DNA of 64,000 nucleotides. Source: a bacterium UBP8_UBA817 (GTDB lineage: Bacteria > Margulisbacteria > Marinamargulisbacteria > SXXA01 > SICP01). How positions within the stretch are numbered: position 1 is the first letter of the stretch; every line of letters starts with the position of its first letter. Where the stretch lies: contig CAMCZW010000008.1 of assembly GCA_945888435.1 (NCBI GenBank), forward strand, positions 2,235 through 66,234. The letters run 5' to 3'. Both the position numbers and the translations under genes were made by a program. Below, piece by piece: positions 186 through 39,209 of the stretch. The notes below the pieces were generated by a model. It was not told the DNA's origin, searched no databases, and worked only from the letters and a program-made list of their open reading frames with translations.

Positions 186-3100
186 TTAAACCTCGCCACC
201 CACACCCTTAAACTTCTCAACGAAAGTGGCAATTCTTTGGAAAACACTTTGTTTTTTGCTTAAGTATTGCGGATTAAGCGGGCTTATTTTGGGAAGGATT
301 GCATTTAGCTCTGTGCCATTTTCACTGGCATATTCACGTTTTAATGATGCAGTTATATAACGCTTAGCGGCTTCTGTATTCAGATTTTCAGCACTAATTA
401 ATTCTTCTGCTTCACGTTGTTGTTCAGCTTGAGCAAAGGTAAAGAAAGCATCAATAATGCTGGCTTTGTCGAGAATGTTATCCAAGTTGGTTTGGTTAAT
501 AAAATCAACCAGCAAACTCTCTTTGGCGCGGTTGCCAAGGCTGGCACGAATCACCCGGCGTACATCTTCAACCAGTACTGATTTATCTTTAACCTTTTTA
601 TTGTTTTCAAAAATCAGTTCGAGAATGTAGTCCAGGTTGATCTCTTGTGACTTCAGCAAATCTACCTCAAAGACCACGTCATCCCAATCGATGGCGGATT
701 TTTCTTTTTCAGTGGCAGATTTTTCCCGACGCAGCCAATCGCGAATATCGTTGTAGGTTGAACGGTAGTCCTGAATCTGCCGCTCGGGGGGCATGGCGAT
801 CGCTTGCAGTGTGGCCAAGTCATCATCGTTTAAATAATGCTGCGCCTTAAATGCCTCAACCGCCTGCGGGTCGCTCATATCAACGCTTTGCAAGGCTTTC
901 AGGCTGGCGAATTCATCGTAGTTTTGCAGCACGTTCTCAACGCGCAAATATTCGCCGAACAGTTTCGCGAAGGCCTTTTTGTCCGATTCTTTTTCAATGG
1001 CAGAGGGATCAGGAAAGCGCTGCTCCAGCTCCCTCACAACCTCAACAAAGCCACGCCGTGCCTCACCGGTAAGCAAATCGGTAAAGCCTTCCATGTATTC
1101 CTTGTAGCTTTTTTCCAGCACCACGTTTTTGGTGTTCGTATCGCCAAACAGGGTAATGGCATCAATTGTGGCCTGCTCCAAATCGCGAAAGGTGACGATA
1201 TTGCCAAAGGTTTTGGTGGCATCGTAAATACGGTTGGTACGCGAATAGGCCTGCATCAAACCGTGATAGCGCAGGTTTTTATCCACAAACAAGGTGTTCA
1301 GCGTAGGCGCATCAAAGCCGGTCAGAAACATACCCACTACAATCAGCAAGTCGATTTCCTTGGCTTTTACTTGTTTAGCCAGATCGCGGTAATAGTTTTG
1401 AAAACCATTGCTATCCACACTGAAGTTGGTTTTAAACATCGCGTTATAGTCGGCGATGGCCGCGCTTAAAAACTCTTTGGCGCTGGTGTTCATGGCTGAG
1501 ACATCAAAGCTTTCATCCAGAATATCGCCAACGGCATCTTGTTCTTCATTGGCAGCAAATGAGAAGATGGTGGCCACTTTCAGTGGCTTGCCGCTGCCTT
1601 CTTGTAATTTTTTCAAAGACTCGTAATACAGCTTGGCGGCATCCACACTGCTCACGGCAAACATGGCATTAAAGCCTTTTGCACCAGCCTGCAGGCGATG
1701 GGTTTTTTGCCGGAAGTTATTCAAGATGTACTGCGAAATCTCCCGAATACGGTCTGGGTGAAGCAAAGCTTGTTTGTTTTCCGCCGCGTTGAGTTTTGTC
1801 TCATCCAACTCGGTTTCAAGCGCTTTGAACTGCGGGCGCACATCGTTGTAATCGACCTTGAACTTCAACACCTTTTCGTCACGGATAGCATCGGTGATGA
1901 CATACGAATGCAACTCGCGGCCAAACACGCTGGCAGTGGTTTCTGCACCGAGGGCGTTTTGCGGGAAGATAGGTGTGCCGGTAAAGCCAAACTGATAAAA
2001 CTTTTTAAACTTCTTCTTCAGGGTCTTCTGTGCCTCACCAAACTGGCTGCGGTGACACTCATCAAAAATAAACACCACTTGCTTGTTGTAGATGGGCAGG
2101 TCACATTCACCTTTCATCAGGTTGTTGAGCTTCTGGATGGTGGTGACGATGATTTTGTTGTCGTCCTTATCCAGATTGCGCTTAAGCCCGGCGGTGCTGT
2201 CAGAGCCATTCACACTATCGGGTGAAAAGCGCTGGTATTCCTTCATGGTTTGGTAATCCAGATCCTTACGATCCACCACGAAGAACACCTTGTCGATAAA
2301 ATCCAGCTCAGTCGCCAAACGTGCCGCTTTAAAACTGGTCAGGGTCTTGCCAGAACCTGTGGTGTGCCAGATAAAGCCACCGCCCTCAAGAGCGCTCCAG
2401 CTTTTGGCTTGATAGGCACTTTTGATCTTCCACAAAATGCGCTCGGTGGCGGCAATCTGGTAAGGTCGCATCACCAGCAGCGTGTCGCTCACATCAAACA
2501 CCGAATAATGCAGTAGCACATTGAGCAAGGTGTTTTTCTGGAAAAACGTGGCGGTAAAGTCCTTCAGGTCTTTGATCAGGCCGTTATCAGCCTTCGCCCA
2601 GTTCATGGTGAAGTCGAAGCTGTTTTTGTTGCGCGCCGTGGTGTTGGCAAAATAACGGCTATCGGTGCCATTGGTGATCACAAACAGCTGTAAATACCTG
2701 AATAAAGAATGCTCGCTATTAAAGCTCTCTTTGCTGTAGCGGTGCACCTGATTAAAAGCTTCGCGAATCGCCACACCGCGTTTCTTCAGCTCAACCTGCA
2801 CCAAGGGCAGGCCATTGACCAAAATCGTCACGTCGTAGCGATTGGCGTGGCTGCCGGTTTGCTCAAACTGCTTGATCACTTGCACCTTGTTGCGGGCAAT
2901 GTTCTTTTTGTCCAATAGGTAAATATTCTTAATGCGGCCATCGTCAAACACAAAATCGTAAATATAGTCATCATGGATTTTGCGGGTTTTATCGACGATG
3001 CTATCGCTGGGTTTATCCAGATAGGTTTCTACAAAACGCAGCCACTCGCCGTCAGCAAATTGCATATTGTTCAGGGCTTGCAGCTGCTCGCGCACATTGG

Positions 3101-3341
3101 CGATCAGTTTGTCGGGCGTGTTTAAATCGGGGACATAGCCATAGCCCTGATTCTGTAAATCCTGAATAAATTCCCGCTCCAAGTCATATTCGCTTTGGTA
3201 GCTTTCTCTAACCTTCCATTCCTTGGTGTATTTATCCAGCACGATGAAGCTATTTGATTCGGCGATGGGCGTGGTGTAGTTAATCATTCTTTTTGCCTTT
3301 TTTTGATAACTGCAATTGCCTGGCGTTTTGCGCGCTGACAA
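186..3341 (-). CDS. hsdR: Type I restriction enzyme R subunit (HsdR), SF2 helicase/endonuclease
   Basis: 1051-aa ORF with Walker A (GSGKTLT) and DEAH-like (FDECHRS) helicase motifs, length and architecture typical of HsdR. It is the last gene of the hsdM..hsdS..hsdR operon. The true start may be the internal Met at 3287 (MINYTT, preceded by AAGG), giving an 8-nt overlap with the upstream gene. Confidence 0.93.
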
Positions 3342-4134
3342 CCTGTTTACCCGTTTCTGCTTCTAATTTCAGCTTGGCTTCTTTCGCAACACCGCCCCCA
3401 CGCTTTGCGACATCCTCGTGTTCCGCAAACGACTGCGGGTTCACGACTTCTGAAATCTCTTTGGTGGACAACTCTGCCAGCATATTCATGATCAATTCTT
3501 TATTGGTCATGTTGTCACGCAGGTTTTCTTTTTTAAGCCCTTTATATTGCTTGTATTCCTTAGCGGTTTTCCCTGCCCATGTTTTGTAAATCACATCAGT
3601 CAAAAAGGCGAATTCACCACCTTCTTGCAAGCCGTGTTTTTTCCATTCATCGGTTAATTCTTTGCGGATCTCTATGCTTTTTAGCCGTTGGTTAATCCAG
3701 TTATCCGAATAACCCAGCCGCTTATAATCCAGCATGGCTTGTTCGATGGATAACTCAGGGTCTTGCAGCTGATTCAGTCGTTGATTTGCCACCTCAGCCA
3801 GCCACAGCTTGAAGGGTTCGGCTTTTTTAGATGGAATGGATTGGATGATTCTGAAAACCTGCTGGGTATCCAACACATCGGTGAGGCGTTGCTTTCCGTC
3901 AGGGGCTTCGAGCTTCAACTGGTTAGTGACACTAACCACTTCACTACCTTCTTGTTTAAGCTTGTTTTTTAGCCATTTCCAGTAGTTTCTGGCCTTGGCA
4001 TATTCCGTCTGGTCGGTGAGTGCCGCCACCACGTCCAAGGCAGAAAACCACCATTTTTCCTCAGCCTCATCCCAAGCTGTCCGAACATGGATGGATTCAA
4101 ACAGCTGTAGTTTGACTTTATGATCATTTTGCAT
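3280..4134 (-). CDS. Bro-N domain / DNA-damage-inducible protein D (DinD)-like protein
   Basis: 284-aa ORF between hsdS and hsdR. The mid-region ...[30 protein letters not shown]... resembles the E. coli DinD segment ...RKGLKKNQKILDHMGSTELAANLF..., recalled from memory. It overlaps hsdS by 11 nt and hsdR. Confidence 0.5.
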
Positions 4135-5380
4135 CGGCAGCCCCCTTGAAACTCAGCAGCAAATCGCGGTAATACTCGTATTGCTTTTGCCGCAAGGCAA
4201 TTTCACGAGGCAAGCCTTCGGTGATGGAGTTGGTGAGGGCATCGAATTTATCGAGAACTGACGCGATACGCTCCTGTTCAGAAAGATCAGGAATAGGTAT
4301 TGGCAAAGTCTTAATAATATCTGCATTCAAATTGCTAACCGAACCACTGTTAATTTTCCCTGCCCAGTAGTTCTGCACATTATTCGACGAAAGATAGTGA
4401 TAGAGGTAGTCTGAATTTAGCTTTTTCCGGTAGCCACTGATCGAGGCCCATCCGTCATGAATAGCTCCACTTATACCAAGGATGTAGGGTCGCCCAAAAC
4501 TCATTGAGTTGGACAAAATAAAATCACCTGCATTCAAAATACGTGACTTTCTTGAGCCTTCTAATGTGACCTTTTGAGCTGTGCTATTTACATATTTTGA
4601 GCCTGGCGAAGTATCACCAATTTTAATCCAAGGCACGCCATCCTCATCATCAGTTATGTATTTTGCGATTGGTCTAGGCGATGCTCCGCGTTGCACGTTA
4701 GCAACCTCCCCCAGCGTCTTCCACTCCACTTCCCCTTCTTCAAAACTCAACAACTGATCGCGATAGTAGTTGTATTGTTTTTTGCGGGCGGTCAGCTCGG
4801 CGGTCAGCTCGGCGGTCAGCTCGGCGGTCAGCTCGGTGAAGGCGTCCAGAATGCGGACGATTTCGGCTTGGATTTCAAGCGATTTTTTGGGGTTTTCTGG
4901 GCAGGGGATGGGGATTTGGAGTTTTTTCACAACCCCTGCATTTATATTTGTCTGAGAGCCAGCCCCGAGTGATTTGATATGTTCATATTGGCTAGACAAG
5001 AAATGGAACACATAACGGTAGTTTGCAACATTCTCATTAAGTTGAATATTTGCACACGCCTGATTTGTAGTCATTGGAATTTTGTTAATCCCAATTTTTC
5101 CAACAGTCGCCCCATACATCGCAACAATCACACAGTTTTCAGGTATCCAATTTGCGCTGGAATTTTTCAAGCCAGCTTCTGTGATTTTTACGCCTGTATC
5201 CCAAATTTCTCCAAAATCAACTTCTTGAGTCCGTAACCAAGGAATGTCGCCACCATAATATTCAGGCACACCAGTTCTCGGAGTGCCGCCAGACGAAATT
5301 TTTTTAGCAACCTCTCCCAACGCCTTCCACTCCACCTCAGCGCCATCCAGCAGCTTGTCCATAAAGTTCACGCTGCTCAT
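4124..5380 (-). CDS. hsdS: Type I restriction-modification specificity subunit (HsdS), two target-recognition domains
   Basis: 418 aa. It has a central conserved spacer with (LTAE)x4 and a C-terminal conserved ...ALRQKQYEYYRDLLLSF, both typical HsdS conserved repeats. It sits between hsdM and hsdR. Confidence 0.9.
   Translation of the reverse strand: MSSVNFMDKLLDGAEVEWKALGEVAKKISSGGTPRTGVPEYYGGDIPWLRTQEVDFGEIWDTGVKITEAGLKNSSANWIPENCVIVAMYGATVGKIGINKIPMTTNQACANIQLNENVANYRYVFHFLSSQYEHIKSLGAGSQTNINAGVVKKLQIPIPCPENPKKSLEIQAEIVRILDAFTELTAELTAELTAELTARKKQYNYYRDQLLSFEEGEVEWKTLGEVANVQRGASPRPIAKYITDDEDGVPWIKIGDTSPGSKYVNSTAQKVTLEGSRKSRILNAGDFILSNSMSFGRPYILGISGAIHDGWASISGYRKKLNSDYLYHYLSSNNVQNYWAGKINSGSVSNLNADIIKTLPIPIPDLSEQERIASVLDKFDALTNSITEGLPREIALRQKQYEYYRDLLLSFKGAADAK
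4778..4826 (-). repeat. 12-bp tandem repeat (gcggtcagctcg) x4 inside hsdS, encoding (LTAE)4 in the central conserved region
   Basis: Four perfect direct 12-bp copies are seen directly in the sequence. They are in-frame and lie in the TRD1-TRD2 spacer. Plus-strand GGQL-repeat ORFs are shadows of this repeat. Confidence 0.9.
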
Positions 5381-6417
5381 GCCTCATCCCCTTCCAGCTC
5401 ACGCTCAATCTGCTCAATGCTGGGCAGGTTAGTCTGCAGCGGCTCGGGTAAGGATTCCAGCAGTTTGTATTCGGCAATGCCCATGGGTTGGGTTTTATCG
5501 CCCAAGGCGTATTCCGCCACCACTTTGTTTTTACTCTTGCACAAGAGCAGGCCGATTGTGGGGTTGTCGTCCTCGTTCTTCACTTGCCGGTCTACGGCGG
5601 TGAGGTAAAAGCCCAGTTGCCCCAAATGCTCAGGCTTGAACTTGCCGCCCTTGAGTTCAATCACCACATAGCAGCGCAATTTCAGGTGATAAAACAGCAG
5701 ATCGATAAAAAACTCATCGCCCCCGACTTCTAGCAGCACCTGCCGCCCGACGAATGCAAAGCCCGCTCCCAACTCCAGCAGGAATTCAGTGACATGTTTG
5801 ACCAGTGCATGTTCAACCTCGAGCTCCTGCGCTTCGTCGGTTAAGCCAAGAAAGTCGAAACGGTAAGGGTCTTTTAGTGATTCACGCGCCAGATCGGACT
5901 GGGGTTTAGGCAAGCTGATATCAAAGTTGGTGACGGCTGAGCCGCTGCGCTCCAGTAAGCGGGTTTCGATTTGCATAACCAGCACATTACGCGACCAGTT
6001 GTGCTCAATGGCCTTTGCAGCGTACCAGCGGCGCGCTTCAGGGCTGGATAACTTGTCCAGTAGTGCTAATTGGTGATACCACGGCAATTGTGCAAGCACC
6101 GCTTGCACAAATTCGGCATCGGGCCAAGCCCCCGCAAAAGCGCGCATGTACTTGAGGTTGCGCGGCGAAAATCCTTTCATGTCGGGGAATGTGGTGCGTA
6201 GATCGTGCGCCAAGCGTTCAATGACTTTGGCGCCCCAGCCTTGGTCTGCTTGGCGAGCCAAAATGGCATGGCCAATTTGCCAGTAAAGCGCAATGAGTTC
6301 ATGGTTTACCGCCAGTGTTGCCCGTTGCTGGGCATGGTGAACTTTTATCTTCAACTCGACTAACCAATCGGTATAGCCTTCTGGCGCTTGTATCAGTGAA
6401 ATGGGCTTATCGCTCAC
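5377..6417 (-). CDS. DUF1016 (YhcG-like) PD-(D/E)xK nuclease-family protein
   Basis: 346 aa. C-terminal ...FFIDLLFYHLKLRCYVVIELK... fits a D..(D/E)xK nuclease core. This family commonly sits in Type I RM loci. It overlaps hsdS by 4 nt. Confidence 0.6.
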   Translation of the reverse strand: MSDKPISLIQAPEGYTDWLVELKIKVHHAQQRATLAVNHELIALYWQIGHAILARQADQGWGAKVIERLAHDLRTTFPDMKGFSPRNLKYMRAFAGAWPDAEFVQAVLAQLPWYHQLALLDKLSSPEARRWYAAKAIEHNWSRNVLVMQIETRLLERSGSAVTNFDISLPKPQSDLARESLKDPYRFDFLGLTDEAQELEVEHALVKHVTEFLLELGAGFAFVGRQVLLEVGGDEFFIDLLFYHLKLRCYVVIELKGGKFKPEHLGQLGFYLTAVDRQVKNEDDNPTIGLLLCKSKNKVVAEYALGDKTQPMGIAEYKLLESLPEPLQTNLPSIEQIERELEGDEA

Positions 6418-7023
6418 CTACAGCTCCTCAGTCTTAAATTCGCTATAACCTTCGTAGTAATAGCTCACATCAATCCCCTTCATAAACAGCGCGCGGTCAT
6501 CAATCTGGTCGGTGAGGGCTTGTTTGATCAGGGCGTTTATTTCTAGGTCTTTGACCACGCTGCGTTGCATGGCGGAGAGGTAGTCGTCTTTATCCACGGC
6601 ATTCCAGTCGACTACCTGCTGGATTTCTTTTTTAAGCATCAGATCGAGCCAAATCCGTGTGGCGCGGCCATTGCCTTCGCGGAAGGGGTGGGCGATATTC
6701 ATCTCGACATATTTTTCGATGATTTGGTCAACATTGCTTTGCGGCATGGCGTCTATATGTTTTATCGAGGCTTCAAGGTACATGACCCGCGCAAAAGCGA
6801 TTGTGCCTTTGGCGATATTCACGTCGCGGATTTTTCCCGCAAAGGCGTAAATTTCTTCAAACAAATAGGCGTGGATAAAGACAAGTCCGGCAAATTTACC
6901 CACCTCAGCCTTGTTAATATTGCCAGAATCAAAAAGTTGTTTGGCTTTTTGTTTGCTGATTTTTTCTTCGGCGCGGGCCAGTTCGATTTGATCGGTGATG
7001 TTGAGCTTGTTTGCCAGAATCAT
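6418..7023 (-). CDS. fic: Fic/Doc family protein (AMPylation-type toxin/effector fold)
   Basis: Canonical Fic motif HPFREGNGRATR is present, in a 201-aa protein. Confidence 0.85.
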   Translation of the reverse strand: MILANKLNITDQIELARAEEKISKQKAKQLFDSGNINKAEVGKFAGLVFIHAYLFEEIYAFAGKIRDVNIAKGTIAFARVMYLEASIKHIDAMPQSNVDQIIEKYVEMNIAHPFREGNGRATRIWLDLMLKKEIQQVVDWNAVDKDDYLSAMQRSVVKDLEINALIKQALTDQIDDRALFMKGIDVSYYYEGYSEFKTEEL

Positions 7024-8057
7024 GCTAATTCTCTTTTTTTATCAAGTGTTTTTATCGCTTTATCAAAATCAGATTCATAAAGCCTATCCTGCACAATGCG
7101 GTATTTTTCAAACTCACTTTCGGCATGGGCTTTGGCGATTTCAGCACTCACTTTACCTGCGTCTTGCAAAACCTCCCGATCCGTTGCCGCTATAAAACGA
7201 TTTAAACGATCCTCCCAGTCGGCCATGGTCATGGGTATCTTTCTTAACGCCATGTCTTCTGCCAAATCGAGATAAGCACTCACTAGTCTTTGCAGTTGGG
7301 CAAGCTCAGGGTCGGTTAGGTAATTTTTCGCAATACTGACGTCAAATTTTTGAATCTTACCCTGGGGTGCATCTTTCCATGAGGTTAAGCCCATATTGGT
7401 TTTTTCGGCATCGCAGCGGTTGTGAACCACTTCGGCGGCGGTTTGTCCGTGAATCGCCCAGTGCAATTTATTTTGTACGATCGCAAAGAATCTTTTGGTT
7501 GCAGTGGCTGTTACATCATAGTCAATCGCAGTGGCATAGATGTCGGTAATCTTTTGATAAAACTTACGCTCGCTGAGCCGAATTTCGCGAATACGCGTAA
7601 GTTGTTCTTCAAAATATTTTTTGCCGAGGATACTGCCATCATTTTTAATGCGCTCATCGTCCATAACATAGGCTTTGATGGTGAATTCTTTAATGACGAT
7701 GGTTGCCCATTTACGAAACTGTACTGCACGCTCAGAGTTGACTTTGTAGCCAATTGCGATGATGGCCGAGAGGCTATAGTGCTGGGTGTTATAGTTTTTG
7801 CCGTCTTGGGCAGTTATTCGAAAATTTCGAATAACTGATTCTTTTTCCAGTTCACTATCTGAGAATATTTTTTTTAAATGGTAGTTAACGGTGTGGGTTT
7901 CGACATCGTACAAAACGCCCATCATTTTTTGGCTAAGCCATACATCTTCATCCGCATAGACAGCTTCGACACCGCTCTCGCCGCTGGCTGCGATAAAAGT
8001 TAAATACTCTGCTGCGGACGAGCGAATAGTGGGTACTGTTAGCTTCTTTTTGCTCAT
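7020..8057 (-). CDS. rhuM: RhuM family virulence/defence-island protein
   Basis: 345-aa protein with an N-terminal region typical of RhuM (..[14 protein letters not shown].. ..FRKWATIV..). It overlaps fic and hsdM by 4 nt each. Confidence 0.7.
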
Positions 8058-9604
8058 GATGTGCCCCCTTCAATTTGAGCCACGATGGCGTCGATATCTT
8101 TACGAAGCTGGTCGATCTTAGCAACGGTGGTTTTCAGCGCGGCATTGAGCTGGGTAATAGCCACCACCTCGCGATTGTCCTTGGCTTCGACGTAGCTGCT
8201 GACCGATAGGTTGTAATCGTTAGCAGCGATGGCTTCAAGGCTGACCGATTTGGCAAAGTGCTCAACATCCGCTTTGCTATCGAAGGCCTGCATGATCTGC
8301 TCGATGTGCGTATCGGTAAGCGTGTTGTTATTGGTTTCTTTTTTAAACAGACCACTGGCATCAATAAACTGGGTTTTAGTATCTGTTTTGTGTTTGGATA
8401 GCACGAGAATCGTGACGGCAATGGTGGTGCCAAAAAATAGGTTTGGAGCGAGCGCAATCACGGTTTCGATATAGTCGTTATCAATTAAATACTGGCGTAT
8501 TTTTTGTTCGGCTCCGCCACGGTAAAAAATACCGGGGAAGCAAACAATGGCGGCGCGGCCTTTGCTGGAAAGGTAACTGAGCGCATGCAGCACAAAGGCA
8601 AAGTCAGCTTTGGATTTTGGTGCTAATACACCCGCAGGGGCAAAGCGGTCATCGTTAATCAGGGTGGGGTCGTCTGCGCCTATCCATTTTACCGAGTAAG
8701 GCGGGTTGGAGACGATGGCATCAAAGGGCTTGTCATCACCAAAATGCGGATGTCGCAGCGTATCACCCAGCTGGATATTGAACTTGTCGTAGTTGATGTT
8801 GTGCAAGAACATGTTCATCCGCGCCAGGTTGTAGGTGGTGTGGTTGAGCTCCTGACCAAAAAAACCGTCTTCAATAATGTGGGCGTCAAAGTGTTTTTTG
8901 GCTTGCAGCAGCAGGGAGCCGGAGCCGCAGGCAGGGTCATAAATCTTGTTGACGCTGGTTTGCTTGTGCATGGCGAGCTGCGCAATTAGCTTGGACACGT
9001 GTTGCGGGGTGAAAAACTCGCCACCGGATTTACCGGCATTGGCGGCGTAGTTGGAGATGAGGAACTCATAGGCATCGCCAAACAGGTCGATGTGGCTGCC
9101 CTCAAAGTCACCAAAATCCAGCCCGGCCACGCCTTTGAGCACGGCGGCCAAGCGGGTGTTTTTGTCGCCAACGGTATTGCCGAGCCGATTGCTGGTGGTA
9201 TCAAAATCGGCAAACAGGCCTTTAATGTCACCTTCTGATGGGTAGCCGTTGGCTGAGCTTTCGATGGCCGCAAAGATGGCGGCGAGGTCGGTACTCAAGC
9301 TTTGGTTGGTGTTGGCGCCTGCGGCAATGTTGGCAAATAACTGGCTCGGGTAGATGAAATAGCCCTTGGTTTTAATGGCATCGTCTTTGATTTCCGGGGT
9401 GATGACCTTATCGCCGAGTTGCGCATAGTTGATGCTGTCATCACCGCCTTCAATATAGCTGGCAAAGTTTTCGCTGATAAAGCGATAGAACAAGGTGCTG
9501 AGTACGTATTGCTTGAAATCCCAGCCATCCACTGAACCGCGGACGTCGTTGGCGATTCGCCAGATTGCAGCGTGAAGTGCTGATCGTTCTTGTTCTTTAT
9601 TCAT
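8054..9604 (-). CDS. hsdM: Type I restriction-modification N6-adenine DNA methyltransferase (HsdM)
   Basis: 516 aa. It has the NPPYS catalytic motif (..[11 protein letters not shown]..), a SAM-binding region (DPACGSGS) and an HsdM N-terminal domain. Confidence 0.95.
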
Positions 9605-9605
9605 A

Positions 9606-11876
9606 TCAGCCTAACGGGATTCGCGTTCTTACAAAATTAAGCGCCGATCCCGCCTTAAACCAGTCAATCTGAATATCGTTATAAGTATGCAAAATAGGGA
9701 TCATATCCAAAGTTCCATCCGCATGTCGTGCAATCACTCTCAACTGAGAGGCTGGAGAAAATGTTTCTAATCCTTCAATATCCAAAAGATCATCTTCCCT
9801 AATTTTGTCGTAATCCGTCGGATCCGCAAAAGTCAGGGCCAATAATCCTTGTTTTTTCAAATTGGATTCATGAATTCGCGCAAAAGATTTCACAAGCACC
9901 ACTCTCACCCACAGGTAACGGGGCTCCATAGCCGCATGCTCACGAGAAGACCCCTCTCCATAGTTCTCATCACCAACAACCACAGATCCGCGTCCTTTCG
10001 ACTTATAAAGCCGTGCCGTATCAGGTACCGGTCCGTAAGTCCCTGTCACCTGATTTTTAACCGAATTCGCTTGGCCATTAAATGCATTCATCGCACCAAT
10101 AAACATATTGTTAGAAATATTATCCAAGTGTCCGCGATAGGCCAGCCAAGGCCCTGCCATCGAAATATGGTCAGTCGTGCACTTTCCTTTCGCCTTAAGT
10201 AACAACGGCAATCCACGATAATGGGCAGACTCATACGCATCAAACGCATCAAGTAATTGCAAGCGATCCGATGTCGGACTCACCACAACCTGGATATGTC
10301 CACCGTTCGCAGCTGGTGCAACAAACCCCGCATCCTCAACATCAAAACCCCGTGTCGGAAGCTCATCCCCAGAAGGCGGCGCAAGCTTAACCTGTTGCCC
10401 AGATTCCGTCGTAATCGTGTCTGTCATTGGATTAAATAAAAGTGACCCTGCAAGCGCAAACGCAGTTACAATTTCTGGAGAAGCCACAAACGCACATGTA
10501 TTCGGGTTACCATCATTACGTTTCGCAAAGTTACGATTAAATGAAGTCATAATGGAGTTTTTACGATTAGGATCCGTCGTATGACGTGCCCACTGACCGA
10601 TACAAGGTCCACACGCATTCGCCAACACAACACCGCCAATCTGCTCAAATACACCGAGTATGCCATCGCGCTCTGTTGTAAATCTCACCATTTCTGATCC
10701 TGGAGTAATCGTAAATTCACTTTTGGCTTTAACGCCTTTATCCAAAGCTTGCTGTGCAACAGATGCCGCTCTCGCCATATCTTCATACGACGAATTGGTA
10801 CAAGATCCGATCAATCCAACTTCTAGTTTTTCAGGCCATCCATTTTGGTGCACCGCGTCTTTAAACTGAGATAATGGAGTCGCTAAATCGGGTGTAAAGG
10901 GTCCATTGATATACGGTTCAAGAGTCGATAAATCAATTTCAATCACTTGATCATAGTAGTCATCAGGAGTCGCAACGACTTCGGGATCCGGGCGTAAATG
11001 TTCTCTGATTCCATTGGCCAATGCCGCCACTTCCGCACGTCCGGTGGCGCTTAAGTAGTCCGCCATTCGATCATCAAATCCAAATACAGAAGTTGTGGCC
11101 CCAATCTCCGCACCCATATTACAAATGGTCCCTTTACCCGTACATGACAAGGCATCTGCACCGTCGCCAATATATTCAACAATCGCGCCAGTACCGCCTT
11201 TCACAGTCAAAATACCCGCGACTTTCAAAATAACGTCTTTAGGAGATGCCCAACCAGACAACTTCCCAGTCAATTTAACACCAATAAGTTTAGGAAATTT
11301 AAGCTCCCAAGGAAGTCCGGCCATCACATCCATCGCGTCCGCACCGCCAACCCCAATCGCAAGCATTCCAAGCCCACCCGCATTCGGAGTATGAGAGTCC
11401 GTACCAATCATTAATCCACCCGGAAACGCATAATTCTCAAGAACAACTTGGTGGATAATCCCCGCACCTGGCTTCCAAAATCCGATGCCATATTTATTAG
11501 AAACAGAGGCTAAAAAATTATAAACTTCTTTGTTATCTTTATTCGCAGTTTCCAAATCGGCTTTTGCCCCAACTTTCGCTTGGATTAAGTGATCACAATG
11601 CACAGTCGATGGGACCGACACTTTATCTTTACCGGCTTGCATAAACTGAAGCAACGCCATCTGAGCAGTCGCATCCTGCATGGCCACACGGTCAGGAGAA
11701 AAATTAACATAGTCTTTACCTCGGCCAAATGGACGAAATGGAAATACTTCCTGCAAATGGCTATATAAAACTTTCTCCGACAACGTCAAAGGACGACCCA
11801 ATAATTCGCGAGCCGCAGCCACCTTTTTAGGTAACTCCTGATACACTTTTTTAATCATATCCAAATCAAATACCAT
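9606..11876 (-). CDS. acn: Aconitate hydratase, mitochondrial-type (~750 aa)
   Basis: The ORF extends to 11954, but the Met at 11876 is preceded by AAGGAG. Aconitase family motifs are present (..[12 protein letters not shown].., ..[10 protein letters not shown].., C-terminal swivel domain). Its stop lies 1 nt from the hsdM start codon. Confidence 0.9.
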
Positions 11877-11965: not shown

Positions 11966-12253
11966 GTGAAATATTTACTTGACAACTTGATAAGAAAAGA
12001 AAATAATAAATATATGGATAAAACAGAATTAAGTGTCGGCGAATTAAAAGCTCATTTTTCAGAAGTCCTAGAAAAAGTACAACAAGGACACCAGATTACG
12101 ATTCTATTTGGAAAGCAAAAAACACCCGTCGCAGAAATCATTCCCTTAACACAAAAAAAATCTCCAATAAGATTAGGGTCCTTATCAAAAAAAGCATCTT
12201 TCAAAATAAATCCAGGATTCAAAATGACCGAAGACGAATTTCTAAATTCATGA
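11966..12253 (+). CDS. Type II antitoxin (Phd/YefM-like), partner of the downstream PIN toxin
   Basis: A small ORF sits immediately upstream of the PIN-domain gene and overlaps it by 4 nt (ATGA). The real start may be the internal Met at 12014. Confidence 0.55.
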   Translation: MKYLLDNLIRKENNKYMDKTELSVGELKAHFSEVLEKVQQGHQITILFGKQKTPVAEIIPLTQKKSPIRLGSLSKKASFKINPGFKMTEDEFLNS

Positions 12254-12648
12254 AAATCCTAATTGATACCCACATATTATTATGGGCAATTTTTGACCCA
12301 TCCAAGCTCTCTAAAAAAGAAAGTGCTATTATAAAAAATCCAGAAAATATCATTCTGGTAAGCGCAGCTTCATTATGGGAAATCAGCCTCAAATATTCAA
12401 AAGGTCAGCTCAACTTAGTCAGGTGTATTCCCACTGCACTACCTTCGATTCTTGTTGAAGACGGTTTTGAGCTAATTGATCTAACCCCTCAAGAAACAGC
12501 CGGAAGTTTTATTCTCCCAAAAACCACACATTCGGACCCATTCGATCGCATGATCATTTGGCAGGCAATATTTCGGCAAATACCCCTACTAACCAGAGAT
12601 GAAAAATTAAAAGAATATACAAACTATGGGCTTCAGCTCGCCTTCTAA
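12250..12648 (+). CDS. vapC: PIN-domain ribonuclease toxin (VapC-like)
   Basis: 132 aa with an N-terminal MKILIDTHILLW.. PIN signature and acidic residues. It is paired with the upstream antitoxin. Confidence 0.8.
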   Translation: MKILIDTHILLWAIFDPSKLSKKESAIIKNPENIILVSAASLWEISLKYSKGQLNLVRCIPTALPSILVEDGFELIDLTPQETAGSFILPKTTHSDPFDRMIIWQAIFRQIPLLTRDEKLKEYTNYGLQLAF

Positions 12649-28832: not shown

Positions 28833-31800
28833 ATGAAAATAAAATCAATCATTTGGAGTTGTTTTTTAATCTGTTTCCTTTGCAGTCCGATTACTGCAAG
28901 TGTAGAGCTCCAAGTGTCTGGAAGCCTTCCGCCTATTAACGGAACCTTTATTTCAGGTAGTCATGCCGCAACAATTGGGATTTATAAAGGCACTACAGGC
29001 ACCCCCGTATGGTCAGAGCCAATTGCCAGCGTAACATTCAGAAACGGAATGTTTACAACCATTATCGGAAAAGTCACGCCCCTTGAAGCAAGCTATTTAT
29101 ACGTCACAAATCCACATATTGGCATCACTCTCACAGACACCCCTCATACAATTCAATTTGTTAAACTCACCGCATCACCATACGCATTCAAAGCCGCGGT
29201 AGCAGAGCGCGCCCGTAAAGTCTCAGCCAATGTCATCACCGGAACAATGGTTTCAACAGCAAACTTATCAAAAGGGCTATATGTTAAAGCAAGTAGCCAA
29301 AATTACTCCCTATTCGTCAATGCAAATAGCGTAGGGATTGGGAAATCAAATCCAACCACCAAGCTCGATATAAACGGAATCATCAATGCCGACGGATTTA
29401 GAATTAGAGGAGAAGATATCGCAGGAGCTCTCTCCTGGAAACCTAACACCGTCATCACCCAAAATATTTACTTTAATACAGGCCGGGTAGGAATCGGAAC
29501 CTCCATCCCCCGCTACACATTAGAAGTTGCAGGCACCATTAATGCCTCTGAATTATTTACCAAATCTAGAAAAATCTCATCCACATTAGATTGGCAACGA
29601 TCTCCAGTCGCATCAGAAAATTTGTATTTTATTAACCTGGATAAAAAGGTCGGTATTGGAGTAGAAAATCCAAGATCAAAACTTCATGTATTAAACGAGA
29701 TTAGAGTATCCACCAACGTCTATCCTGCGGCGGTTGGTATGATTAGAAGATCCTCTGCAAATAATGAGATTGAAGGTTATACCACCAGGGGCTGGTTACC
29801 CCTCACCGGCGTACGAGGCGGCGGCCAAAAAGATCGTCTAACTTTTTTTACAACTCCTAAAAATATTAGCTCTAGCCCATTATTTCTTCAAAATCATACT
29901 AATTCTTTTGTAGGAGTTGGAGTCTCCGCCCCCAACTCAACACTTCAGATCAAAGAAACCAATTCTAATAAAAAATTATTTCAAGTAACTTCAACACAAA
30001 ATAAAACATTGCTAATGGTTGGCTCTACAGGCAACGTTGGGATCGGAACCCCTACTCCAAACCAAAAGCTAAAAGTAATTGGCAGCCTCGCTGCTGACGA
30101 TATCACACTAAACGGCCTATCTATCCTTCTCGCAGTATCAAAAGACTCTGTATGGCTATTAAACGCAAGTCATAATGTCTACTATATGTTAGGGAATGTC
30201 GGGATTGGCCAAAACAGACCTGAAAGCCTTTTAGAAATTGCCCAAAGAACCAACTCAAATGATGACCCCGCCATTACATTAACCAACGGTAGAAATGTCA
30301 GCTATACCATGGGAGTCGATAACGATAAGCCAGATACATTTAGAGTAGAGTTTGGAACCACGCTTGGATCAACATCTCCATTATTTGTCGCAAAAAATAA
30401 CTTTTTAGGTATTGGCTTAGAAACCCCCTTAGCGCCCCTTCATATCAACGGAAAAATAGGAACTGTTTTTAGCGGGACATTTTACGGAGTCCCAGAAGAA
30501 ACTGCACAAGAACTCGATCCGTTAACCGGTGATGAGCTTATCCCGACTCTTCCAAAAGAAGGTCCTGGGACTCGATTTTTATGGCAACCTCAAAGGGCAA
30601 TATTCAGAGCTGGCCAAGTGGAATCAACATCCCCTTACCTAAGAGGAGAAAATTGGGATAATGAAAACTCAGGCAAATTTTCAAACGCATTTGGACTAAA
30701 TAGTATCGGTAGCGGTAATTACACCACCGTCGCCGGTGGAAAAAATAATATCGGCAGTGGCGCCTATTCGACCGTAGCTGGTGGAGAAAATAACATTTCA
30801 GAAGGAGACTTTTCACTTGCTGTCGGTAAAAATGCGACCGCACTTCACGAAGGATCTTTTATTTTTCTCGACTCATCAGCAGCCCCAACATCAACTATTA
30901 AACACAGTCAATTTTTAGTATTCGCGTCACGAGGTATGGGGATTGGAACAACCCTAACCACGGTAGACGGCATCAGATCAGGCTTAACTATTAAACGAGA
31001 TAAAAGTAGTGGGAACATTCTAAGATTTATCGGTTACCCCACAGAAAATACAGGAACCGCCCTATCATCATCTGGAAATATGATTATCGGATCACTCACT
31101 CCGGGAAACGCCAAATTATCCATAATGGGGGCAATGAACATCGGCGGAACACCAAGAACCCCCTCAGGCAATATTATTACGGCCAATATTAAGCTCAGCG
31201 TCAACCGTGACACCCCCGGTCTTTACAATACCTTCATAAAATCGATTGAAGCCATCACAACACCTGGCATGGCCATTTTAAGTGGCCCAGGGCACATCGG
31301 CATGGCCATTATTCCAAATATGTTTACAGCAGCAGACCTATTAACCGGACTTCAAGTAGGAAGCGGAAGTGTATTAGCTAGTGAGTACATTCAACCCGAC
31401 GGAACCCGCCTTGGAAAAGAAGCCGTCATTGTGTGGTTAGAAAATTCAGACGGAGATGTTTACTTCGTCTCTGGAAACACAGGAATTGGGATGGCATCAC
31501 CAAATAGTATGTTGGAACTATCTAATATCGGGAATACATTGTTTGCAAACCCACAAAATCCGGCAATTAGCTTCACCTCCTCACCCATTAGCTACAGTAT
31601 AGGGGTCAAAAGATCCGGAAACTCAGCACTCCGTATCATTAACGGCATCAATCTAACGACAGACACACCAGCATTTGCAATCCATGATAATAAAATCGGG
31701 ATTAAAACAGATACCCCGCTCGCCATGCTCCATGTCAACGGAAACGCAATTTTTAGAAGTGGCCTTGCTGTTGGAACCACCAATCAACAAGCCAATCAAT

Positions 31801-34800
31801 TGACTGTCCCTAGCGTTATGACCCGAGGCCTTAATATCAGAGGCGACGTCGTCACCTCTAGCGGAGACAAATGGAGCATAACTGGCAATACAGTCTACAA
31901 ATCATTACTTGATCCAGTAGGGATTGGAACAAGCACTCCAAGAACTGACCTTGAAGTCATTGGAATAGTCTCTGCAAACAGTTTTGTAGTTAAAAACCAA
32001 TTCGATGTTTTAGGGAATACCAAAGTCAATCGAATTGATTTCAATCTCGACGAATCTGAATTTAGATTTGAAGTACAAAATGAAAAACTATTTTTGGATG
32101 ATGTTCCTCTATCCGATATTTTATCGAGAGGGTTACCATCCGATACCAGCATTGGCCCGATCGTCATTTGGGTAGTAGATCCAACTCGAGATACTGATCA
32201 AATATTAAGCGAAACCGACATGATCTGGTATTCAGAAACCCCAAGAAGAATTGGCACTTTAGTCTCATCTCATAACATCAATATCGGAAATACCATAAAA
32301 GACTCAAGCACCTCCTTCGAAAAAACAATCCAAGTTAAAGTAGGCACCCAAAGCATACTTGATGGCCTCAGTTTACAGGGCAATATCACTCACGACGGAA
32401 CTCTCTCTCATTCTAAAAATTTCACGCTTAGATCAAGCAGATTAGTAATTGATGAAAGATGGTCAACACCGAGCACGACCAATGTTCAATATGCAAATCA
32501 TATATTTGATATCTACGGAAAATCCGTCAAATTAAAAAATTCCAACGATGGCGCAGGTACCACTAGCATGATTAACCAAGCACCCGCCACGGGAGTTCGA
32601 GTCAACGTCAGCGATGTAAAACCTCAAACCAGCGCAGAAAAAGTATATTCAGCGATCTTTATGGGGGATGTCGGGATTAAAAAATTCCCAGCTGCAATCA
32701 CTGGTGAATATATATTAGACGTTAAAGGGATCGTTTCTGCAAATCGATTTATCATTTCAAAACGACTCAGAATCACTACCATCAATGCCAACAACATTCT
32801 ATTTATTAATGAAGCAACCAATGCAATTGGAATTGGGACATCAACCCCAACCACAACACTAGAAGTAAAAAATGAAATTAAAACAACACATCTTAGAGCA
32901 AGAAGCCTAGATACCAACAAATTAGTAGTCCAAACAAAAAGCTTATATGTCGATAATCAAAAAGTCGGTATGGGCACAATTACACCTGAAAGTTTACTCC
33001 ACATCAGTAAAACACTCACAAGAACACCCACTACTGAATATATTAACTTTTTAATCACAACCAACATCCAAACTACCCAAAAAAATAATAAAGGACTAGA
33101 AATCGTCTTAGCTACTAGCGCCAACTCCACATTTGGGACACTCACAACACCAAAAACGGTTAAAGGTATGGACATCACAATGGCCAATTTTAATAGTCAT
33201 GACAGTGGTCAAGTCATTGGGATTAGCGCCGAAACCAAAAGACAAAACAATGCCTACTCTGCAATTTTCAAAGGGGGTAACGTTGGTATCGGAGTTCCAA
33301 ATCCGGTTTACCCTCTCCAAGTATCAGGGACGATTCGAGCCGACAATGTCCTTCAAATCAACCTCTTAACCCGACAAGAAGCTGCGTCATTTAATTATCT
33401 AAATGTCCTTTCACCAACTGATAATACAATGATTTCAGGGACAGCAATTGCTCGAAATATGGTTGTTCGGAAAATGAAACAAAGCAGCCGTTCTTTTATA
33501 GTGAATAATCAAATTAATCTACCGACTATCACACTTCAGGTCACCGCGAATGGATTTCTTGAAGCCATCAATTTAATTGCAAGCGAAAGCATAAAAACAA
33601 AAGACATGACATCAAGCAGACTACTATCGGGTAAAGATGCTGAGTTTCAAGGCCTTACCATCGGGATTGCCGAAGAAACCTTAGACACAGTGAGAGTTCA
33701 GACAAGCGCAAATGCCACGCAAATAATCGCAGATAAAAGCATTCTCGCAGGCGCTGCAAAAATCAACTCAACTACGCTCAGTGTTCTTCCATATGGATTT
33801 GTCGGAATCAATGAAGCGACACCGAGAGCCATCCTAGACGTCAAACTCACTAACGACACGTTCGTTACACTTCATAACAATAGCAATACCGAAAATACCA
33901 GCGTCGGGATTATCTTCACCCCAGCATCCGCAACCAATATTCGAAATATTGGTTCAGGGATTGTTGCTATCAAGACAACCGCAGATATATCCGCTTCAGA
34001 ATTAGCGTTCATGACAAATCCAGTAAGTAACACACCTCAAGAGAGAATGAGGATGTTTAACGAGGGCGGTATCCGAATCGGAGCCCCGACGGTCTCTGAA
34101 ATAGCCCCTAAAAAGAGTCATCTGCTCGTTAAAGGCACCGCCTTAGTTTCAGGGATAAGTACGGTAAATCTATACGTAAACACAGAAACCATTCGAAACA
34201 ACGGTAATATTCGAATTGCAAACTCAATCAAAATTTTTGACCAAGATTTTATCGTCTCAAGAAATTTAATGACCAATACGGTTCAGCTTCAAGAATTATC
34301 AAGTCATCCCGTCACAAGCAATCAAAAATCAATTTTATACGCCTTCAATAATGGTAGCGCAGCCGGGATTTACTATGGAACCATATTAGAAGACGGAGTA
34401 TTCGCAACAGGAAATATGGAAGATACCTTTACCGGAACAAGAAAAGTAATCCCTGCATTTAATAGTAGCCACAGCATCGTCGATACCAATGTCATGCACT
34501 GGACTACAAGCAATATCAACTCGGTCGGTATTGGAAAATTAACCGTCGGATCTCATATCACATCAAACGTAGTGGGATCAGAAGCATCTCAGTTACATGT
34601 AGCAGGTGTCACCAACTCAGTATTAGCCGATAAAACCCTTAAAAAATTGCAATTAGAATTTAAAGACAGAAACACAGCAGGCTTCAGAACATTCCAAGGC
34701 TATAAATTAACCTCCACATTCGCCACATCAAAGTTAGCCGAAAATGAACAAATGATTGGATTAGACGTCAATCTCACTACACTTGCAAGTGAAAGTAGAC

Positions 34801-37800: not shown

Positions 37801-39209
37801 ATAGTGACGCAAATAAAATCAACTCACCCCTCACCCTATATTCAGGTACCTATCCAATCATCCCGATTACAACAGGGTCCGAAGACTCCATCCAAAAACA
37901 AGCCTTCCAATTTGTAGGCCGTGTCTTAATTAACGCAGGCCCAATTAGTGGAAGCGCACTCGATAATGAAGGCCCTGACAGCTATGGAAACCGAATGCCC
38001 GTATTAATTGTCAGCGGCGACATGAGAGTCGGAGCTAAAGTAAATAAAACTGAAACAGAATTTGCAGGCCAAGGAAAAAAACTAATTTTCTCAGGGGGAT
38101 ATCTTATCAATAGCAGTACGACCGATGGTAATAACGAAGATCCAATGCATATCACAAGAGTCAACACCAACGACCAGGCATCAGACCTGCAAATTTCGAT
38201 TGGAGAAGATCACACCATTAACAATGCCGCATTCAAAATAGGGGTTTCCGAAATAACCAATCAAAAATGGCATACATCCCTTGTCGCAAGAACTTTTTCA
38301 GAAACCTCAAATGCAAATACATCAATGGTCGGTATCGGATTAAACAATCCAACCACAGCCTTCTATGTTAAAGGGGTTGCCTCATTTAATATGAGACCGG
38401 ATGTCACCTCAAATACTACTACATTTGTAACCAACAACATCGCTCACCGCGCTCTCGTTCTCTTTGAAAACACGACTGCCAATGCCAACTCCCTTCTCAT
38501 CAAACATAGTGCGGAAGCTTCTAACGGGGTTGTCGGATCCGACTCTAATTTTATTAGCTTCAAATCATCAATATCACCCACAGGAGCACTGATCAGCTTA
38601 GGCGCAATTGAAGGGAACGGAGAAACAGGGGTTCAGCTCACATCTCCAGAAGCGGACTATGCAGAGTATTTACCAAAACTCTATAACAGCGAAGAAATTA
38701 GCTCAGGTCAAATTGTCGGGGTATTTAACGGCAAAGTCAGCAAGGTCACCAAGGGCGCAGATCAAATCATGGTCACCAGTGTGGCTCCAATTATCGCGGG
38801 TAACTGGCAAGGGGACACTAAAACCAAACAAGTCCTCGTCGCATTCCTAGGCCAAGTTCCAATTAAAATCAGAGGAGCAGTATCAGCAGGAGACTATGTC
38901 ATCCCATCAGGACTTAATGACGGGACTGGAATTGCCATTAAACCCAATGAAATCAACGCCAAAAATAGTGATCTCATTTTAGGCCGTGCCTGGGGGATTA
39001 ATTCAGTCGATAAAGTGAGCACCGTAACAGTGTTACTTGGATTAACAAAATCTCCAGCCCACACTATTTCGTCACAAAAAGTAGAAACATTGGCCGAAAA
39101 ATTAATCACTTTAGAAAGTAATATCGCTCAACTAGAAACAACATATCAAAATGTTCTTCAAAAACAACGTGATCAAATTAAACTTCTTAAAGCAAAGGTA
39201 AAAAAATAA
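28833..39209 (+). CDS. Giant secreted fibre-like repeat protein 1 (3458 aa): signal peptide, ~29 (V/I)GIGTxxPxxxLHVxG-core repeats, conserved C-terminal module + coiled coil
   Basis: It is an uninterrupted 10.4-kb ORF with a signal peptide ([22 protein letters not shown]|S). Repeat cores recur every ~40-150 aa (for example [34 protein letters not shown]). It is paralogous to the 40137 gene. Confidence 0.85.

Follow-up and report, generated by a model that had tools for sequence, protein, structure and literature searches.

Candidate defence genes nested in a type IC restriction-modification operon of a Marinamargulisbacteria genome

Accessory genes of type I restriction-modification operons

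A close described counterpart of the locus considered here is EcoprrI of Escherichia coli, a type IC restriction-modification (R-M) system with a classical effector gene, prrC, embedded in its hsd operon. The locus lies in a 64,000-nucleotide stretch of DNA (the window) from the bacterium UBP8_UBA817 of the Marinamargulisbacteria (GenBank assembly GCA_945888435.1, contig CAMCZW010000008.1), in which (i) genes for a RhuM-family protein, a Fic AMP-transferase and a DUF1016/YhcG protein are placed between hsdM and hsdS, and (ii) a gene for a Bro-N domain protein is placed between hsdS and hsdR. An earlier, sequence-only reading of the window had joined the first three genes into a single sensor/toxin/nuclease module. 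The locus is viewed here, as somewhat the more probable account, as a case of layered immunity, in which a horizontally acquired type IC operon would carry single-gene cassettes that were gained separately and act separately, with no three-protein machine.

The idea of such genes in R-M operons is not new (PMC3710099; bioRxiv 10.1101/2024.01.29.577857). RhuM-like and Fic/DOC genes were noted together with PrrC in R-M operons by Anantharaman et al. (2013), who proposed a multilevel defence and viewed RhuM as a toxin in a position equivalent to that of DOC (PMC3710099). The PDC candidates of PADLOC are defined as families embedded in BREX, DISARM or type I R-M systems (bioRxiv 10.1101/2024.01.29.577857), and genes for DUF1016 and RhuM are enriched beside phase-variable hsdS genes (PMC9881135). 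Of the four candidate families found in the window, only PDC-S05 (RhuM) has a positive phage assay reported: one cold-seep gene, acting alone, brings the plating of T7 and T5 down about 1000-fold (bioRxiv 10.1101/2024.09.26.614923).

Like the EcoprrI/prr locus of E. coli, the operon of the window is a type IC hsd operon with embedded and apparently co-expressed accessory genes; unlike prr, it has no PrrC, holds Bro-N in that slot and carries three more genes between hsdM and hsdS. With the multilevel-defence neighbourhoods (PMC3710099) it shares the combination of R-M genes with Fic/DOC and RhuM-like genes, but it has RhuM and Fic jointly, together with DUF1016 and Bro-N and without HEPN, and fold analysis of RhuM predicts a domain that binds DNA and recognises no enzyme fold. 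Each of the four accessory proteins aligns with a PADLOC model from end to end (PDC-S05, PDC-S04, PDC-S02 and PDC-S13; E 1e-100 to 1e-167). These models are single-gene (PDC-S) models and no multi-gene (PDC-M) model was matched; thus, the families are catalogued singly, whereas the four in one operon are a particular combination and no catalogued system. The trio had been put forward as an uncharacterised candidate; each gene is already a single-gene PADLOC candidate, and the R-M embedding of RhuM and Fic/DOC was described in 2013.

Organisation and composition of the operon

The operon is one seven-gene unit on the minus strand (window 186-9604) in the order hsdM, RhuM, Fic, DUF1016/YhcG, hsdS, Bro-N and hsdR, with Pfam and NCBIfam scores well over the curated cutoffs for all seven assignments. 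The methyltransferase subunit gene hsdM (8054..9604, 516 amino acids (aa); TIGR00497 at 639.7 bits, PF02384, PF12161) is followed by RhuM (7020..8057, 345 aa; PF13310), Fic (6418..7023, 201 aa; PF02661, NF046029) and DUF1016 (5377..6417, 346 aa; PF17761 and PF06250). The specificity subunit gene hsdS (4124..5380, 418 aa; PF01420), Bro-N (3280..4134, 284 aa; PF02498) and the restriction subunit gene hsdR (186..3287; TIGR00348 at 682.5 bits, PF12008) complete the unit. The hsdR product is counted as ~1033 aa from an ATG at 3287, a start placed according to the Bro-N/hsdR junction and relatives of 1032-1033 aa. The three genes between hsdM and hsdS are intact open reading frames (ORFs) with the boundaries given in the sequence-only reading; the fourth accessory gene, Bro-N, and the type IC nature of the system were missed by it.

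No intergenic space separates the seven genes, each junction being overlapping or abutting. ATGA overlaps join hsdM to RhuM, RhuM to Fic and DUF1016 to hsdS, the TAG stop of Fic is followed at once by the GTG start of DUF1016, and the overlaps of hsdS/Bro-N and Bro-N/hsdR measure 11 nt and 8 nt; the tight coupling claimed for the trio is evident from these junctions. The stop codon of the preceding aconitase gene (TGA, 9608-9606) is 1 nt ahead of the hsdM ATG (9604; window 9602-9608). A promoter and terminator scan of the operon found no signal for an internal promoter above that of shuffled sequence, consensus promoter-like sites being fewer than after shuffling, and the promoter scan and junction reading revealed no intergenic region or recognisable promoter belonging to the R-M operon itself. 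Since the junctions overlap or abut and promoter-like sites fall below the shuffled level, the simplest reading is that the seven genes form a single, translationally coupled transcription unit.

The composition of the operon is foreign and mosaic. The G+C content at third codon positions (GC3) is 0.62 in hsdM, 0.58 in Fic and 0.62 in DUF1016, with hsdR in the same 0.58-0.62 range, and departs sharply within the trio at RhuM (0.44); host genes have a GC3 of 0.39-0.48, the aconitase gene 0.39.

The R-M core is assigned to type IC of the EcoR124/EcoprrI family, because HsdR bears an EcoR124_C domain (PF12008 at 244.2 bits) and HsdS contains TAEL repeats. The latter are encoded by a tandem repeat at 4787-4836 of hsdS (period 12 bp, 4.2 copies, 100% match by Tandem Repeats Finder) that forms part of the central conserved region (peptide TELTAELTAELTAELTA), and the hsdM-hsdS-hsdR order is present, as tested for this family. 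Repeats of 12 bp coding for TAEL in HsdS are a hallmark of type IC enzymes (e.g., EcoR124I and EcoR124II), and the copy number of the repeat sets the length of the recognition-site spacer in EcoR124I versus EcoR124II. By analogy, a change in copy number may act as a specificity switch in the window operon.

Comparative survey of the trio

Related loci were sampled as 80 Fic-anchored species-representative genomes, 80 HsdM-anchored metagenome loci (77-92% identity) and four RhuM-anchored genomes (window-type RhuM at 86-88% identity), all ranked by similarity and not phylogenetically independent. Annotation was by jackhmmer with the window proteins and six extra seeds and by simple ORF tiling. 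The RhuM-Fic-DUF1016 arrangement recurs once in ~160 loci, in Acidithiobacillus sulfurivorans (L031), and a blastn search of 5,426 E. coli genomes found nothing of the trio. One apparent strain variant with another gene 3' of an identical Fic (L006) was rejected, as the locus proved to be identical, its scaffold being interrupted by a stretch of N.

Fic occurs in type I R-M operons in 41 of the 80 Fic-anchored genomes and outside of them in the other 39. In the 41 R-M loci, the gene immediately before Fic is hsdM in 29 and the gene immediately after it is hsdS in 25, while intact RhuM is found in 8 and intact DUF1016 in 4-5. The contents of the hsdM-hsdS slots that could be evaluated in this sample (32) include Fic alone (25), Fic with DUF1016 (2), RhuM with Fic and DUF1016 (1) and RhuM with Fic and KilA-N (1). 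Outside R-M operons, the sequence around Fic is untruncated in 24 of the 39 loci, where the neighbours examined include fmt, valS, prmC, Mrr and HepT. The HsdM-anchored sample offers 73 evaluable hsdM-hsdS slots, of which 55 are empty; the occupants of the remainder include RhuM only (7), Fic only (2), DUF1016 (1), Fic then RhuM in reversed order (2), DUF1016 with RhuM (1), and Bro-N, KilA-N and Fic-HTH (helix-turn-helix) once each. The hsdS-hsdR slots of this sample are occupied by PrrC-like AAA_13 genes in 33 of 47 cases.

RhuM directly follows hsdM in all four RhuM-anchored genomes, none of which has an intact window-type Fic or DUF1016; one carries a Fic fragment, and another (L170) has, at other places in the operon, a DUF1016 fragment and a Fic of SoFic type. 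When only window-type genes (70% identity or more) are counted, they are found in six of the seven possible combinations with at least one gene present. Gene orders also vary, with Fic-RhuM, DUF1016-RhuM and hsdM-DUF1016-hsdS-Fic all represented, and the operons of relatives embed other genes as well (Schlafen/AlbA_2, RelA_SpoT-like, GIY-YIG, KilA-N and a second Fic type). The three genes, hence, assort independently.

HsdM and HsdR are 80-92% identical in most of the sampled R-M loci, which span several phyla. More broadly, type IC HsdM, HsdR and Fic are 75-92% identical across many phyla, with HsdS at ~30-40% (L008-L087, L088-L167). This disparity between backbone and specificity subunit indicates that the operon backbone has undergone a very wide and recent horizontal spread in which HsdS was swapped.

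Properties of the embedded proteins

The RhuM protein matches PF13310 over profile positions 1-249 of 252 (355.8 bits; cutoff 33.7) and PADLOC PDLC04851 (PDC-S05) over positions 3-337 of 342. An AlphaFold model (36-sequence alignment, pLDDT 78) predicts an N-terminal winged-helix, Bro-N-like DNA-binding domain and an all-helical C-terminal domain; no relative of solved structure was detectable by sequence. Some relatives of RhuM carry a Bro-N or Cro/CI-type HTH domain as an N-terminal fusion. Two representatives with C-terminal phosphorylase or PTA domains (P0248 and P0345) were set aside, as they look like gene-call artefacts. RhuM and the Bro-N protein of the window match each other at only E ~0.01 (BLASTP and hhalign), and their putative homology is based on the modelled fold and a common palindrome motif (see below), not on sequence statistics. 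The RhuM protein differs from DdrC of Deinococcus radiodurans and from phage Bro-N, KilA-N and Ant proteins in that sequence identity is ~10% and the C-terminal domain has no confident match, such that DNA-break binding by RhuM would be an analogy only. A literature search that combined DdrC, DinD, RhuM and Bro-N returned noise and surfaced no relevant paper.

The Fic protein is assigned to class III (NmFic-type). It scores 296.8 bits against the NF046029 equivalog 'protein adenylyltransferase Fic' (cutoff 230) and aligns to PADLOC PDLC04842 (PDC-S04; E 2.5e-100), PDB 5nv5 (E 4.9e-90) and NmFic entries (E ~1e-60). PDB entries 5nv5 and 6ep0 are presumably the Fic of Enterococcus faecalis. The active-site motif HxFx(D/E)GNGRxxR is present as H112-PFREGNGRATR-123 (HPFREGNGRATR), in agreement with the HPFREGNGR noted in the sequence-only reading. 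That reading did not mention SYYYEG, the C-terminal cis inhibitory motif ([S/T]xxxE[G/N]: S187-YYY-E191-G192, followed by Y193), which is conserved with PDB 5nv5. Similarly to NmFic and the Fic of 5nv5/6ep0, the protein has ~200 aa, a single FIC domain, the canonical active-site motif and a C-terminal SxxxEG inhibitory helix with flanking tyrosines; unlike theirs, its gene is embedded in an R-M operon, and its target can be suggested only by analogy.

No separate antitoxin gene with an inhibitory helix accompanies Fic, nor is there a small ORF between RhuM and Fic. A FicT/FicA type II toxin-antitoxin pair (class I Fic) was rejected, as the inhibitor is in cis and the VbhT model scores 58.7 (cutoff 800). 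A SoFic protein (Fic_N, Fic and a SoFic-like C domain, ~360 aa) was likewise rejected, the PADLOC SoFic match being E 0.0015 over 25 residues. NmFic is self-inhibited, is released through auto-AMPylation and monomerisation and targets GyrB, and class III Fic enzymes are inactive as the tetramer formed at high concentration and active as the monomer (PMC12894286).

Relatives of the window Fic at 70-90% identity are found in Proteobacteria, Cyanobacteria, Spirochaetes, Planctomycetota, Fibrobacterota, Bacteroidota and others. The subfamily is also carried, at ~70% identity, in ~800 Enterococcus plasmid records, of which one was inspected (L168, NZ_LR135347.1); here Fic adjoins a recombinase gene and no R-M system is present. 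A further plasmid match (H11), seemingly a 2.2-kb plasmid with Fic only, was rejected as an assembly fragment.

The DUF1016 protein, which matches PF17761 (DUF1016_N; 149.7 bits), PF06250 (YhcG_C; 213.5 bits) and PADLOC PDLC04831 (PDC-S02; E 5.4e-167), is a predicted DNA-binding PD-(D/E)xK DNase. The D..ELK core reported earlier is present: D239 and K256 are invariant in 10-11 relatives, and E254 of the E254-L255-K256 segment completes the D...ExK core.

The Bro-N protein (4134..3280) matches PADLOC PDLC04920 (PDC-S13; E 6e-122) and PHROG 15286, with a C-terminal part that is weakly DdrC-like (weak NF033622 and PDB DdrC matches). It fills the hsdS-hsdR slot that PrrC, an ABC-ATPase/HEPN anticodon nuclease triggered when the restriction enzyme is inhibited, holds in most relatives. 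The gene in this slot has no AAA_13 or HEPN match, and the window is, therefore, without a PrrC-type guard gene.

A layered reading and its rivals

In the layered reading, two variable slots of the type IC operon hold four promoterless cassettes (Bro-N in the hsdS-hsdR slot, the other three in the hsdM-hsdS slot), whose translation from the hsd transcript would be coupled by overlaps of stop and start codons. The cassettes would have been gained separately and most likely act separately as second-line effectors behind restriction. We infer the targets, the triggers and the part of each gene in phage defence of the host as follows. By analogy with NmFic, release of the inhibitory helix of Fic would lead to the AMPylation of GyrB and to a stop of DNA replication and growth. 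RhuM may be a Bro-N-like DNA-binding protein able to block phage alone, and DUF1016 would act as a DNA-binding PD-(D/E)xK DNase. A guard relation of each cassette with the restriction complex, after the PrrC paradigm, is plausible by analogy.

Several points weigh against this reading. Two of the families did not protect in reported tests: PDC-S02 (DUF1016) gave no protection against T4, T5 and T7 in one test (bioRxiv 10.1101/2024.09.26.614923), and PDC-S04 (Fic) gave no defence in a native-host study. The mode of action assigned to RhuM is also weakened in that fold analysis matched no enzyme fold to its all-helical C-terminal domain. Regarding independence, RhuM and DUF1016 co-occur above expectation in Fic-containing R-M loci (odds ratio 9.3, p = 0.043, Fisher), a value that rests on a small and phylogenetically non-independent sample, and divergent family members may have been missed by the jackhmmer and ORF-tiling annotation. 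Moreover, the existence of Bro-N-Fic fusions (PADLOC model PDLC04841) and the reported RhuM-DOC fusions (PMC3710099) make it possible that Fic has some functional tie to a Bro-N-type module.

The rival put forward by the sequence-only reading, an obligate three-part abortive-infection system of RhuM, Fic and DUF1016 triggered by phage or by loss of methylation, draws on the contiguity and translational coupling of the three genes, on the same order in A. sulfurivorans and on the modest association of RhuM with DUF1016 noted above. It is nevertheless highly improbable: the arrangement appears once among the ~160 related loci, each gene is often found in the absence of the other two and several other orders occur, while Fic remains 74-90% identical across phyla whether its partners are present or not and is also found free-standing, beside housekeeping genes and on plasmids. 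The GC3 mosaic and the match to single-gene PADLOC models only, with no multi-gene model, point the same way. What endures of the proposed defence module is that the genes are defence-associated, embedded in the R-M operon, apparently co-expressed and matched by PADLOC; its unity as a joint three-gene module does not. A narrower rival confines the partnership to RhuM and Fic, as a split version of the Bro-N-Fic or RhuM-DOC fusion in which RhuM is a DNA sensor that licenses Fic and DUF1016 is an unrelated neighbour. The 292-aa PDLC04841 aligns with both the Bro-N N-terminus and the window Fic, RhuM-DOC fusions are reported, and the two genes are adjacent in L013, L017, L031, L112 and L155, with remnants in L008 and L074; yet 25 of the 32 Fic-anchored hsdM-hsdS slots hold Fic without RhuM, 8 of the 10 RhuM-containing slots of the HsdM-anchored sample are without Fic, the order is not fixed and Fic has its own cis inhibitor, which together make such a pair quite doubtful.

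A different kind of rival, unlikely but the most serious of the three, holds that the cassettes are not primarily anti-phage and instead stabilise or regulate a mobile R-M island. Fic would then be a one-protein addiction module, activated by its falling concentration, such that loss of the operon would poison gyrase, and RhuM and Bro-N would be DNA-binding controller proteins that possibly act via intragenic palindromes. The inactive tetramer and active monomer of class III Fic (PMC12894286) suit this account, as do the wide occurrence of the same Fic on plasmids beside partition and resolvase genes, the lack of defence by PDC-S04 and PDC-S02 in reported tests, the predicted DNA-binding folds of RhuM and Bro-N, in which an enzyme fold was not detected, and the palindromes within both genes. 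By contrast, the strong protection against T5 and T7 by a RhuM homologue alone, the definition of these families through embedding in several unrelated defence systems and the frequent occurrence of RhuM, DUF1016 and Bro-N relatives on viral contigs and outside of R-M operons argue against this account.

Intragenic palindromes of RhuM, DUF1016 and Bro-N

A perfect palindrome with arms of 9-13 bp is present at a fixed codon position in each of three cassette genes, RhuM, DUF1016 and Bro-N, out of the four. The RhuM palindrome (7811..7837, codons 74-83; sense strand CAGTTATTCGAA-ATT-TTCGAATAACTG) is a perfect 12-bp stem flagged by the terminator scan; that of DUF1016 (6088..6110, codons 103-110; sense strand TTGTGCAAGC-GGT-GCTTGCACAA) is just 5' of the codons for the invariant W113/H115, and that of Bro-N measures 19 bp (3920..3938; sense strand TGGTTAGTG-T-CACTAACCA). 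The proteins encoded by the three genes are all predicted DNA binders. The 64-kb window has five perfect stems of at least 9 bp (1.9 expected), of which these palindromes account for three. Across gene classes, such stems number 0.80 per kb in RhuM, 0.99 in Bro-N and 0.65 in DUF1016, compared to 0.03 in HsdM, 0.03 in HsdR, 0.06 in PrrC, 0.08 in other ORFs, 0.09 in Fic and 0.13 in HsdS, and are 8-30 times denser in the three families than in the other classes tested.

The palindromes persist as the proteins diverge. All 31 distinct RhuM-family genes of the fetched loci (21-100% protein identity) fold a 9-17 bp stem at homologous codons, most of these stems being perfect and 10-16 bp long, compared to 5-8 bp for the longest perfect stem in any other part of these genes. 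The arms differ by subfamily, and both arms shift together with the protein sequence dragged along; within the window RhuM clade, the change from ATT CGA...TTT CGA to ATC CGG...TTC CGG represents two compensatory synonymous pairs. In a 30-sequence gapless alignment of RhuM, 92.5% of cells are paired versus 65% after shuffling (0 of 500 shuffles as high) and 17-43% with a slid partner; all 12 pairs have changed on both sides, and the covariation score is 0.78 versus 0.25. For DUF1016 (49 sequences anchored on the W codon), 83.3% are paired versus 54.8% after shuffling (0 of 500 as high) and at most 42% in slid controls, with a covariation score of 0.66 versus 0.19. These structures were derived from the same sequences on which they were tested; the agreement of the slid controls and of independent viral samples argues against circularity. 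In the latter, perfect stems of at least 9 bp occur in 46 of 65 distinct viral-contig RhuM sequences (median 12), and, for Bro-N, the corresponding site has arms of 7 bp or more in 30 of 34 distinct viral-contig relatives.

The RhuM and Bro-N palindromes have common outer arms, CAGTTG...CAACTG (or the reverse). As the palindrome centre is at codon position 3 in RhuM and at codon position 2 in Bro-N genes, the common motif is read in different frames. Comparison of the strands revealed no bias (G-U pairs, 8 sense versus 11 antisense) and Watson-Crick pairing in 306 of 330 inner pairs; thus, DNA-level and RNA-level readings of the palindromes are inseparable. No Rfam family was matched, and a full-text literature search surfaced no paper that links palindromes with RhuM. 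Two candidate identities were rejected: an antisense terminator, as homologues do not conserve the T-rich tail of the RhuM palindrome and that of DUF1016 lacks such a tail, and a LexA box (CTGT...ACAG), as the spacing is ~13 nt, not 8.

In RhuM, the N-terminal part of the protein (residues 15-72) assorts between lineages independently of the C-terminal part (85-340), with identities of 31% versus 77% for L045/L109 and 52% versus 21% for L011/L032, and the switch is located near the palindrome. Truncated RhuM remnants in L008 (6105-6332), L074 and L088 end or diverge ~5-20 codons past it. Separately, L136 (1520-1929) has two partial RhuM genes in tandem with one palindrome each.

These palindromes are tentatively regarded, at a confidence a little short of even, as selected cis-acting nucleic-acid elements and not mutational by-products. 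One candidate role is that of a built-in recombination hotspot that swaps N-terminal DNA-binding and C-terminal modules between lineages; another is that of an intragenic operator or mRNA hairpin that would give a promoterless cassette its own control wherever it has landed. A neutral candidate explanation is that they are functionless, self-perpetuating quasi-palindromes kept by template-switch correction. Selection is favoured over neutrality because of the fixed position, the persistence to ~20% identity, the enrichment in these families and the independence of frame. The constancy of position per family while the arms differ by subfamily through compensatory changes would also speak for selection, as would the bending of the protein sequence to fit the palindrome, which is visible in reverse-complement-coupled residue pairs (K/L, R/R, A/A and S/E).

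Other features of the window

Beyond the operon, a small ORF on the plus strand (11966-12253) overlaps the start of a PIN-domain gene (12250-12648, 132 aa), the PIN assignment being the one tabulated for L001, an identical locus. The pair (11966-12648) looks like a VapBC-type toxin-antitoxin and is located between the aconitase gene and a gene for an RrnaAD-family (PF00398) rRNA adenine dimethylase. A single ORF at 28833-39209 encodes a highly repetitive protein of 3458 aa with a hydrophobic, signal-peptide-like N-terminus. Of the two long perfect stems that the window has besides the three cassette palindromes, one (33932-33954) is in this ORF.

Implications

The locus is one more case of candidate defence genes nested in type I R-M operons and does not define a new system. 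It is, in effect, a compact natural construct in which PDC-S02, PDC-S04, PDC-S05 and PDC-S13 would be co-translated in one operon with an intact type IC system, and lends itself to the question of whether such nested genes work by themselves or, like PrrC, under guard of the restriction complex. Of more interest than the locus itself is the palindrome that RhuM, DUF1016 and Bro-N have in common. If functional, it would represent a new type of cis-signal within genes of defence and might account for the regulation or shuffling of promoterless cassettes; if it is no more than a self-perpetuating quasi-palindrome, it would show strikingly how mutation at the DNA level can dictate the sequence of proteins across great evolutionary distances.

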